Origin: Escherichia coli
GTDB taxonomy: Bacteria; Pseudomonadota; Gammaproteobacteria; Enterobacterales; Enterobacteriaceae
Strand: one strand, 5' to 3'
NCBI RefSeq assembly: GCF_001677475.2
Contig: NZ_CP015229.1
DNA length: 64,000 nucleotides
This document shows positions 178 through 1,160 of this stretch, one piece after another. How positions within the stretch are numbered: the stretch's first letter is position 1; every line of letters starts with the position of its first letter. Below the pieces are notes generated by a model, which made no database searches, had not been told where the DNA came from, and worked only from the letters and a program-made list of their open reading frames with translations. A program made the position numbers and the translations under genes.

Positions 178-462
178 ATGTTTAAAGAAAAGCTCCAGGA
201 TTATACCGAGGATGAATTTCTTAATTTTTTAGGCGGATTGAGATCATCTATGAAAGATGGAAAATCCTTAAAAGGTAAGGAGCTAGAAATGTACTGGGAT
301 TCATTAGTAGATCATTTTATTGAAATTACACAGCATCCGTCAGGGAGCGATCTAATTTTCTACCCTAAAAGTCAAGGAGATGATAAGCCTGAAAACATCC
401 TGAAAATTGTCAAAGAATGGCGGCGTTCACAGGGGTTACCCTTGTTTAAAGACTCTAAATAA
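178..462 (+). CDS. DNase immunity protein, colicin/pyocin Im family (Im7/Im9-like), 94 aa
   Basis: ATG 2 nt after the toxin stop. The 94-aa product carries the Im-family hallmarks DYTExEFL and TQHPSGSDLIFYP (compare Im9 DYTEAEFL and TEHPSGSDLIYYP), and has the Im-typical size. Confidence 0.85.
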   Translation: MFKEKLQDYTEDEFLNFLGGLRSSMKDGKSLKGKELEMYWDSLVDHFIEITQHPSGSDLIFYPKSQGDDKPENILKIVKEWRRSQGLPLFKDSK

Positions 463-489
463 AGTAGATAATAAAACTATATATGGAAC

Positions 490-516
490 ATCATCGCATC
501 TGGCTAATACGATGAT
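490..516. other. Inverted repeat / hairpin downstream of immunity gene 1 (atcatcg-N13-cgatgat)
   Basis: 7-bp stem with loop catctggctaata; homologous to the hairpin at 1184-1218. No clear U-tract follows, so intrinsic-terminator function is uncertain. Confidence 0.4.
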
Positions 517-572
517 ATTAATGACATAAAATAATAATGTGATTGCTCTTAAAAAACAGGTAGAAATACTGA

Positions 573-865
573 AGCCTCATTAGGTTATTTTATCATTTTC
601 CCGCTTTTACCGATACCCTTTGGCTGGAGGTGAGTCAGGATCCGGAGTTGATAGCGCAGTTTTCAAGCGGTAATCAAACACGTATAAAACAAGGATGAAT
701 CGCAAAAGCACCACTTGAAGGTTGGCATTATGGCACTAAAGAAATCGTTAAAAAATTCCACATGTATCATCGTGTTGCGATTGAATATAGTGGCGGAATT
801 TACGATATTGATAATTTAAGGAGGGCACACCTCATTTGCATGATGAAATTTATTACAGGAGATAG
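573..865 (+). pseudogene. Decayed copy of the HNH DNase toxin domain (orphan toxin C-terminal remnant)
   Basis: Translation ..FYHFPAFTDTLWLEVSQDPELIAQFSSGNQTRIKQG*IAKAPLEGWHYGTKEIVKKFHMYHRVAIEYSGGIYDIDNLRR, then after a -1 shift TPHLHDEIYYRR*, aligns with colicin E7/E9 DNase (..FWEEVSKDPELSKQFS..VGKAP..HH..VYDMDNI..TPKRHIDIH). It has an in-frame TGA at 696-698, HH changed to YH, a frameshift near 820-830 and no start codon. Nucleotides 692-865 are clearly homologous to 1-175. Confidence 0.75.
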
Positions 866-869
866 TTAA

Positions 870-1160
870 ATGTATAATTTTAAAGATAAAATAGAAGATT
901 ACACAGAGCGGGAATTCATTGAGTTGCTTGGCGAGTTTACAAATCCAACCGGGGATAACGCTCAATTAAAAGGGGAAGAGCTTGACAAATATTGGGATGA
1001 TCTAGAAGAACATCTTACCAGAATTACACAACATCCGTTGATGAGCGATCTTATCTACTATCCTGCAAAGAAGGGAGATGATGAACCTGAAAACATCCTG
1101 AAAATCGTCAAAGAATGGCGGCGTTCGCAAGGATTGCCTTTGTTCAAAGATTCAGAATGA
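870..1160 (+). CDS. Second DNase immunity protein, Im family, 96 aa; divergent paralog of 178..462
   Basis: Product contains DYTEREFIELLGEF and TQHPLMSDLIYYP, with a C-terminus (PENILKIVKEWRRSQGLPLFKDS) nearly identical to immunity protein 1. Intact ORF starting 5 nt after the stop of the toxin remnant. Confidence 0.85.
   Translation: MYNFKDKIEDYTEREFIELLGEFTNPTGDNAQLKGEELDKYWDDLEEHLTRITQHPLMSDLIYYPAKKGDDEPENILKIVKEWRRSQGLPLFKDSE

Follow-up and report, generated by a model that had tools for sequence, protein, structure and literature searches.

The window analysed here, 64,000 nucleotides (nt) of Escherichia coli DNA (contig NZ_CP015229.1), opens inside a DNase toxin gene, the 5′ part of which lies outside it, and continues with an immunity gene (imm1), a dead toxin remnant (fragB) and a further immunity gene (imm2; table 1). 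This region is best read, with a probability that we put at about 85%, as the distal end of a polymorphic type VI secretion system (T6SS) effector-immunity array, in which imm1 encodes the presumed cognate immunity protein of the toxin just upstream, as judged from sequence, imm2 encodes an orphan one, and the units of the array recombine as cassettes. Both immunity genes lie directly 3′ of sequence coding for an HNH DNase, imm1 behind the toxin gene and imm2 behind the remnant. In the following, the variable 5′ part of each immunity gene is called its head and the last 72 nt (24 codons) its tail.

The first-pass annotation of this DNA, made from the letters alone, had proposed two paralogous immunity proteins of the Im7/Im9 type. 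Indeed, both open reading frames (ORFs) are present, their products share 59 identities over 93 positions (63%; BLASTP E 2e-44), and the motifs listed as common to them, DYTE.EF, TQHP..SDLI.YP and GDD.PENILKIVKEWRRSQGLPLFKDS, are all found. Each protein spans positions 1-82 of the 82 in the Pfam profile PF01320, and among the sequences of the PDB imm2 matches the immunity proteins ImAP41 (4uhp_B; 2.4e-19), Im7 (3e-18) and Im8 (2.4e-15) and, more weakly, ImS2 (7e-15), Im9 (~1e-13) and Im2 (~2e-13). An AlphaFold2 model of imm2, built from 27 homologues (imm1 being placed by its 63% identity to imm2), has a predicted local distance difference test score (pLDDT) of 88.6 and four helices, at residues 13-21, 35-53, 58-63 and 73-86. 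A Foldseek search with this model returned 4uhp, 2jb0 and 1emv as top matches, with template-modelling (TM) scores of 0.84 for ImAP41 (4uhp), 0.77-0.79 for Im7 and 0.75 for Im9, and all matches below E 1e-3 were DNase immunity proteins, so that the proposed fold was recovered rather than an unrelated one. Judged by profile, matches to solved structures and predicted fold, imm1 and imm2 are DNase immunity proteins of the colicin/pyocin family.

When the two proteins are compared element by element, with the helix boundaries of the AlphaFold2 model and the numbering of imm2, identity amounts to 9 of 13 at residues 4-16, 5 of 18 (28%) at the end of helix I and in loop 1 (residues 17-34), 10 of 19 (53%) in helix II (35-53), 9 of 12 in loop 2 and helix III (54-65), 3 of 7 at residues 66-72, and 23 of 24 (96%) in helix IV and the tail (73-96). 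The differences thus cluster at the end of helix I, in loop 1 and in helix II (together 41% identical), which is where a variable specificity region had been predicted, and the C-terminal residues are near-identical, as had also been seen at the outset. The helix III hotspot is exact in imm2 (SDLIYYP) and carries a Tyr to Phe change in imm1 (SDLIFYP); both proteins have the sequence LKG-x-E-L, the glutamate of which (E37 in imm2, E35 in imm1) aligns with that of the SEL motif of ImAP41 in an HMMER alignment and may be the conserved glutamate of the family that, at the start of helix II, forms a salt bridge with the DNase. Across the family, the N-terminal part of helix I, the [S/T]DLIYYP binding hotspot of helix III and helix IV are conserved, while the stretch between the middle of helix I and the far end of helix II shows little conservation, varies in the length of loop 1 and holds the specificity determinants (Joshi et al., PMC4548480). 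Since the conserved and variable regions are the same, the variability between imm1 and imm2 follows the family-wide pattern. As a separate observation, residues 83-95 of imm2 (WR.SQGLPLFKDS) are invariant in the 27 homologues, down to 47% overall identity, and are more conserved than the helix III hotspot, differing from the WRAANGKPGFKQG of colicin immunity proteins; this invariance may in part be an artefact, because the homologue search needs exact shared words of five residues.

The toxin gene at the left edge of the window translates to a 3′ end, ..GLTAKAPIDGWHYGPKEIVKKFQIHHRVAIEYGGSVYDIDNLRIVTPRLHDEIHYRR followed by the stop codon, with the H-N-H motif that closes a colicin-type DNase at its C-terminus; this motif is intact (..KKFQIHH..DIDN..RLHDEIHYRR, then the stop), and a portion of the exosite for the immunity protein is covered as well. 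The 1,560 nt upstream of pdhR have a match over at least 80% of their length in 1,047 of 5,426 complete E. coli genomes, the best at 99.0%. In ECO20, a 99% match, a toxin of 593 amino acids annotated as tssD lies between aroP and pdhR, directly upstream of the same immunity gene, and hits the Pfam families T6SS_HCP (2.9e-12), Pyocin_S (1.2e-39) and Col-Pyo_DNase (4.6e-42). The layout aroP-tssD-imm-remnant-imm-pdhR is found in ECO20, PSUO2, UTI89 and CFT073. The sequence of imm1 agrees to 100% with that of the immunity protein that comes first in UTI89 and in ECO20; the UTI89 locus, which also lies between aroP and pdhR, has as its second immunity protein one with 98% identity to imm2. For uropathogenic E. 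coli (UPEC), Ma et al. 2017, as cited in PMC6730261, described the effector Hcp-ET3-4 (UTI89_C0121), bearing a pyocin S3 domain and a colicin DNase domain, and, in the same account, three immunity genes 3′ of UTI89_C0121 that all helped to neutralize the toxin; orphan immunity genes are known in E. coli (PMC6730261). The toxin upstream of imm1 would accordingly belong to the Hcp-ET effectors (Hcp, Pyocin_S and a colicin-type HNH DNase), the full form being the one seen in the closest genomes.

The remnant fragB is homologous to the full-length toxin only from the codons LWLEVS onwards, a point immediately ahead of the part that aligns with the immunity-protein exosite of colicins. About 510 codons, those for Hcp, for Pyocin_S and for half of the DNase domain, are accordingly missing from it. 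Two of its lesions, a 1-nt deletion near 822-826, which throws TPHLHDEI(H)YRR with the final HNH histidines out of frame, and the replacement of HH by YH in the first catalytic dipeptide, are common to the 12 copies examined; an in-frame TGA (from TTA) at 696-698 occurs in this window only. The ancestral frame can be followed to ..TPHLHDEIYYRR and a TAG at 863-865. The ATG of imm2 stands 4 nt past this ancestral stop, with a Shine-Dalgarno sequence (AGGAGA) 7-8 nt upstream of it, and that of imm1 stands 2 nt past the toxin stop, its AGGAGA falling within the last toxin codons. The early reading of an intact immunity gene beside a dead toxin was thus correct, the remnant being truncated, frameshifted and interrupted by a TGA next to an intact imm2. 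The 129 nt of fragB that code for the exosite are 91% identical to the live toxin, and this part is 91-100% alike in all remnants, whichever immunity gene follows.

The 3′ thirds of the two immunity genes had been called nearly identical in nucleotide sequence, which overstates the case: the tails differ at 10 of 72 nt (86% identical), 9 of the 10 differences being synonymous, and what does approach identity is a core of about 41 nt (1086-1126) with a single mismatch. A recent gene conversion between the two copies would account for this core and for a dip of the proportion of differing synonymous sites (pS) to 0.24 at codons 67-81 in a sliding window. However, over the 24 codons of the tail pS is 0.57 (9 synonymous differences in 15.7 sites), as against 0.70 in the head, whereas the corresponding nonsynonymous value (pN) is 0.02 in the tail and 0.29 in the head; the two tails, moreover, represent different haplotypes, and across strains it is the position in the array that decides which of them a gene carries. 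What conversion or shared ancestry actually looks like is seen between imm1 and imm0, a third type of immunity gene found in related arrays: when both are non-terminal, their tails have a pS of 0.12 and their spacers are near-identical to identical. A recent exchange between the two tails of the window is ruled out by the synonymous-site counts, and recent conversion as the source of their likeness is very improbable. Because the synonymous sites are saturated, the tails are old copies, and their likeness reflects a constraint at the protein level, which also extends across genera (pN 0.02-0.06 with pS 0.46-0.83 in 14 of 15 pairs).

The cassette exchange with a fixed 3′ anchor that the first-pass annotation had suggested does stand, on the comparison of 11 E. 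coli arrays with 30 immunity genes and three heads (0, 1 and 2), although not for the reason then given, the tails of the window being saturated at synonymous sites. The exact 20-mer CCTGAAAACATCCTGAAAAT is present in 30 of 30 of these genes. On its 3′ side, haplotype T (..TCGCAAGGATTGCCTTTGTTCAAAGATTCAGAATGA) is carried by all 11 terminal genes, of which six have imm2 heads and five imm0 heads, and haplotype I (..TCACAGGGG[C/T]TACCCTTGTTTAAAGACTCTAAATAA) by all 19 genes in non-terminal positions, whether their head is 0, 1 or 2; in imm2 copies from elsewhere, the change of haplotype sets in at position 1106 of the window. Since the tail haplotype follows array position and not the immunity head, the tail belongs to the scaffold of the array and not to the cassette. 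Outside E. coli, in the loci L004 and L008 described below, the 20-nt junction is not exact.

The order of the units varies accordingly among strains. With A for imm1, B for imm2 and 0 or 0′ for imm0-type genes, the arrays read A-B in the window and ECO20, 0-A-B in PSUO2 and CFT073, A-B-0′ in UTI89, SBF22 and FDAARGOS_1284, 0-B-0′ in FAH and UID23 (UID2309220026) and A-B-0-B in Ecol_AZ159, while NR1441 has a tssD::fragB pseudogene and then imm2 alone. The Ecol_AZ159 array (L018 765-3144), with imm1, imm2, an imm0-type gene and imm2 again plus three toxin remnants, is the longest seen, and an internal deletion in it would give the UTI89 or the ECO20 type. The number of matching places per genome lies between 1 and 4 (median 3). 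The units are mosaics, since the same heads are paired with different exosite parts and tails, and different heads share tails and flanks: unit u0 of PSUO2 and unit u2 of UTI89 agree to 0.99 in the head, 0.60 in the exosite part, 0.85 in the tail and 0.37 downstream, and unit u1 of ECO20 and unit u2 of UTI89 agree to 0.61 in the head, 1.00 in the tail and 0.99 downstream. The spacer is likewise 85-100% identical between internal units of different strains, whatever immunity head precedes it.

Natural recombinants are found as well. In NR1441 (L012 1916-3991) the last ~250 nt of a full-length tssD are those of fragB, so that the gene has the 1-nt frameshift and is annotated as frameshifted; imm2 follows directly and imm1 is gone. 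This is the product expected from a crossover between the exosite region of the live toxin and fragB, and it looks like a natural collapse of the array by recombination in which the toxin was killed and one immunity gene kept. Public assemblies also contain hybrid immunity proteins, with an imm1 head and an imm2 rear or an imm0 head and an imm2 or imm1 rear, broken at the conserved motifs LKG, TQHP or EFL..L (P0004, P0009, P0012-P0014, P0018, P0073; L011 3308-4291). Those from draft assemblies (L011/P0004, P0009, P0012-14, P0018) could be products of unequal crossover or artefacts of short-read assembly; P0073 falls outside the draft group, its longest contig being 4.9 Mb.

Some further variants of the locus may be recorded here. 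Before imm1 in 0-A-B arrays there is a remnant, fragA, with an open frame to the natural stop and an intact HNH (PSUO2, L002 7939-8175; CFT073, L014 1926-2162), and a single crossover between fragA and the live gene could restore a working toxA-imm1 pair, that is, the arrangement of ECO20 and of the window. CFT073 has an element of the IS3 family between imm2 and pdhR (L014 3518-4731). In UID2309220026 (L016 2854-3844) the imm2 hotspot DLIYYP is changed to DFIYYP and the terminal imm0-type gene is frameshifted. In Z22-2 (L003 5288-6099) an IS1 has deleted everything from htrE through to the last 99 nt of imm2; one search hit (H90), considered as an imm2 tail on an unrelated immunity gene, was rejected on finding that it is an IS1-truncated imm2 at the same locus.

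An intact toxin matching imm2, for which a survey had been suggested, was found in none of the 5,426 complete E. coli genomes, and in none of 60 genomes sampled evenly from the 1,058 that carry fragB and imm2 does this unit stand under an intact tssD. A protein search did find such a partner elsewhere: an imm2-type protein, P0005, 86% identical to imm2, is encoded 4 nt downstream of an intact Hcp-Pyocin_S-DNase toxin of 594 amino acids. This toxin-immunity pair (L004-L007) sits at a yjcZ-proP locus and occurs in 20 metagenome, Logan and NCBI contigs; the host of L004 is a member of another lineage, the protein being assigned to a metagenome-assembled genome (MAG) of an 'Enterobacteriaceae bacterium' and the ProP gene lacking a megablast match in E. 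coli. The gap of 4 nt between toxin and immunity gene equals that between the ancestral stop of fragB and imm2, and the L004 toxin ends in TPHLHDEIHYRR, like the out-of-frame end of fragB. At the nucleotide level, L004 and the window are 86% identical in the 3′ part of the HNH and 90% in the imm2 head, as compared with 74% and 60%, respectively, between the resident toxA-imm1 and fragB-imm2. When the DNA of the L004 pair was compared with E. coli genomes, the sole tssD-imm2 junction was that of NR1441, a frameshifted pseudogene. Taken at the level of sequence, a live toxin partner of the imm2 type exists, and in the set searched it is found only outside the kin of this E. coli.

A related Hcp-ET DNase was seen at yet another locus, on the rsmI side (L008/L009 4001-4720). 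Its immunity protein, P0008, clusters with proteins of Enterobacter sp.; the toxin gene is followed by two immunity genes separated by just ~110-140 nt, in which no toxin remnant was called, and in one annotation the second of these genes starts with MMKFITGDN, which is the out-of-frame end peptide of the E. coli remnants.

Several observations weigh against the reading of the region as an array with a cognate imm1, an orphan imm2 and recombining cassettes, or limit it. The 5′ end of the toxin is missing from the window, which starts inside the gene, so that a live toxin upstream rests on the closest genomes. The association between position and tail represents a few recombination events and not 30 independent ones, because the 11 arrays come from related strains. 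The exosite part of every remnant has been homogenized, so that a remnant gives no information on which toxin originally went with the immunity gene behind it. As for imm2 itself, 12 copies of its head show ~6 nonsynonymous and 2 synonymous polymorphisms, which are few and non-independent, and one copy (UID23) has the hotspot change noted above; as the head is about as diverse (~3.7%) as the pseudogene next to it (~4-5%), these data do not demonstrate that imm2 is currently under selection in E. coli.

Three roles remain for imm2, namely protection from foreign Hcp-ET toxins, redundancy towards the resident one, and none at all. It is possible, though doubtful, that imm2 is kept because it acts, redundantly or by adding to the dose, as a second immunity protein towards the DNase of the strain itself, which would be compatible with the array as described. 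All three UTI89 immunity copies contributed to neutralization in the account of Ma et al. 2017 given in PMC6730261, the hotspot of imm2 is canonical, and non-cognate Im proteins bind DNases via helix III (PMC4548480). The live and the L004 toxins, moreover, differ at only ~12 of their last 85 residues, with exosites that are nearly the same (GLTAKAPIDGWHYGPKE and GLTAKAPIEGWYYGPKE). In colicins, however, a handful of exosite differences shifts affinity by many orders of magnitude, so that similar exosites are no proof of cross-protection, and identity between imm1 and imm2 is as low as 28% in loop 1 and 53% in helix II; in addition, the polymorphism of imm2 looks close to neutral, and the array that has imm2 without imm1, that of NR1441, has a dead toxin.

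The same near-neutral polymorphism is what would be expected if imm2 were a relic, carried along in a recombining array beside a selected gene and giving no protection against the toxins met. This is rather unlikely, in spite of the failure to find an intact matching toxin in the complete E. coli genomes and of signs of decay in single copies (the IS1 truncation in Z22-2, and the Leu to Phe hotspot change of UID23 with its frameshifted terminal gene): the imm2 ORF is full-length in 1,051 of the 1,058 carrier genomes, whereas the adjoining remnant is broken in every copy examined, the Shine-Dalgarno sequence and start codon of imm2 are preserved, and a live toxin with an imm2-type partner circulates, according to the metagenomes, in another lineage of Enterobacteriaceae.

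The effector-immunity array, as preferred here, would work and evolve as follows. Some E. coli strains carry it, inserted between aroP and pdhR. By homology, imm1 would bind the DNase exosite through the helix III hotspot SDLIFYP, with specificity set by the variable loop 1 and helix II, so that intoxication of self and siblings would be blocked. The imm2 gene would be the immunity half of a displaced toxin-immunity module, the toxin half of which survives as a frameshifted 3′ remnant. Identity, fold, array anatomy, mosaic structure and natural recombinants are seen in the data, and we infer from there the binding mode, the specificity, the expression of imm2 and any protective benefit. The constant segment of each unit consists of the immunity tail, the ~155-nt spacer and the start of the remnant (the first ~130 nt, coding for LWLEVS and the exosite), and the variable cassette is made up of the 3′ end of the HNH part together with the immunity head. 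Homologous recombination within the constant segments, including the 20-nt junction with its codons PENILKI, would duplicate, delete and reshuffle the cassettes, and the likeness of the C-terminal 24-28 residues would result both from protein constraint on helix IV and the tail and from the tail being part of the scaffold. More tentatively, the constant segments may be kept for the sake of swapping, in a recombination cassette system in which imm2 guards against the Hcp-ET toxins of other gut Enterobacteriaceae and not those of kin; swaps would then change the DNase C-terminus on Hcp and the heads that are kept, the terminal tail serving as a fixed docking site.

With respect to systems already described, the closest is Hcp-ET3-4/UTI89_C0121, which shares the aroP-pdhR site and the Hcp, Pyocin_S and colicin DNase architecture; the window differs in its A-B array, in which imm2 is terminal and bears the T tail, as opposed to A-B-0′ in UTI89, and in the extra TGA of its remnant. 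The pairs formed by colicins E2/E7/E8/E9 with Im2/7/8/9 and by pyocins S2/AP41 with their immunity proteins (PF01320/PF21431) have in common with imm1 and imm2 the fold, the size, the helix III hotspot, the variable loop 1 and helix II, and the position of the immunity gene directly 3′ of the HNH DNase domain. They differ in that their toxins are receptor-binding bacteriocins, whereas the one here is, by analogy, an Hcp fusion for T6SS delivery, and in that the genes here are chromosomal, in tandem arrays with toxin remnants. Furthermore, loop 1 of imm2 is longer by 7 residues than that of Im7 and by 3 than that of ImAP41, and the C-terminal tail reads WRRSQGLPLFKDS where theirs reads WRAANGKPGFKQG.

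Orphan modules are reportedly known for cdiA-CT/cdiI and rhs-CT/rhsI as well (Poole et al. 2011; Koskiniemi et al. 2014), where, as here, displaced modules made of a toxin 3′ end and an immunity gene stand in tandem below a full-length toxin gene, and a shared 5′ edge of the remnants permits recombination with that gene (in the present case, NR1441). The edge of homology is, however, a VENN or PxxxxDPxGL motif in those systems and lies inside the catalytic domain (LWLEVS) here, where also the exosite parts of the remnants are homogenized and a second crossover zone is found inside the immunity gene. In the T6SS of Vibrio cholerae, successive replacement of effector-immunity pairs keeps older immunity genes downstream of the current pair, according to the summary of Kirchberger et al. 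2017 in PMC6730261; to that extent the arrays are alike, but those of V. cholerae involve other effector and immunity families, and here repeats of ~700 bp expand, contract and permute the array.

Table 1. Features at the distal end of the array (positions in the window).
Feature	Position	Strand	Remarks
DNase toxin, 3′ end	2..175	+	last 57 codons and stop; translation; ECO20 match
imm1, DNase immunity protein of 94 amino acids	178..462	+	PF01320 E 8.1e-30; non-terminal (I) tail haplotype
20-nt junction CCTGAAAACATCCTGAAAAT in imm1 (codons PENILKI)	388..407	+	between variable head and position-linked tail
inter-unit spacer, 155 nt	463..617	+	weak 7-bp hairpin (about 490-516), no T-run
dead toxin remnant fragB	618..865	+	homology to the toxin gene (593 codons) confined to its last ~83 codons
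imm2, orphan DNase immunity protein of 96 amino acids	870..1160	+	intact ORF; PF01320 E 7.4e-28; terminal (T) tail haplotype
20-nt junction CCTGAAAACATCCTGAAAAT in imm2	1086..1105	+	exact copy of the imm1 junction
A/T-flanked 12-bp hairpin (AAAATCATCAC..GTGATGATTTT)	1184..1218	+	just 3′ of imm2

Downstream of imm2 lie pdhR, aceE and aceF. The hairpin just 3′ of imm2, with an A-run and a T-run flanking its 12-bp stem, may be the terminator of the array, retained only at the terminal unit: the fold of 1161-1260 has -25.6 kcal/mol and a z-score of -2.0, and a scan with the terminator consensus did not call this hairpin. A promoter and terminator consensus scan of 1-1650 gave fewer promoter-like sites than shuffled sequences and no terminators, and is uninformative on the transcription of imm2. 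The spacer folds with a z-score of 0.13 and has no terminator-like site in the consensus scan. Elsewhere in the window, two matches reach the Rfam gathering level, namely the tp2 small RNA family (103 bits; 2425-2538, minus strand) in the pdhR-aceE intergenic region, and the HtrA 5′ untranslated region thermometer (77 bits; 60461-60506, plus strand).

Publications already cover the gene family, the locus and the concept of orphan immunity, and annotation of the genes is routine, so that no new question is opened by this region; the 20-nt junction and the linkage of the tail to position add a neat mechanistic detail and not a new kind of biology. What can be seen clearly here, in a natural case, is the way in which a locus for polymorphic toxins diversifies: the specificity-determining immunity head and the HNH end move as a cassette between conserved zones of recombination, and E. 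coli arrays with anything from one to four immunity genes coexist, their units arranged in at least six orders. As CFT073, UTI89 and Nissle 1917 carry the array, it bears on which strains kill and which resist in the gut and the urinary tract.

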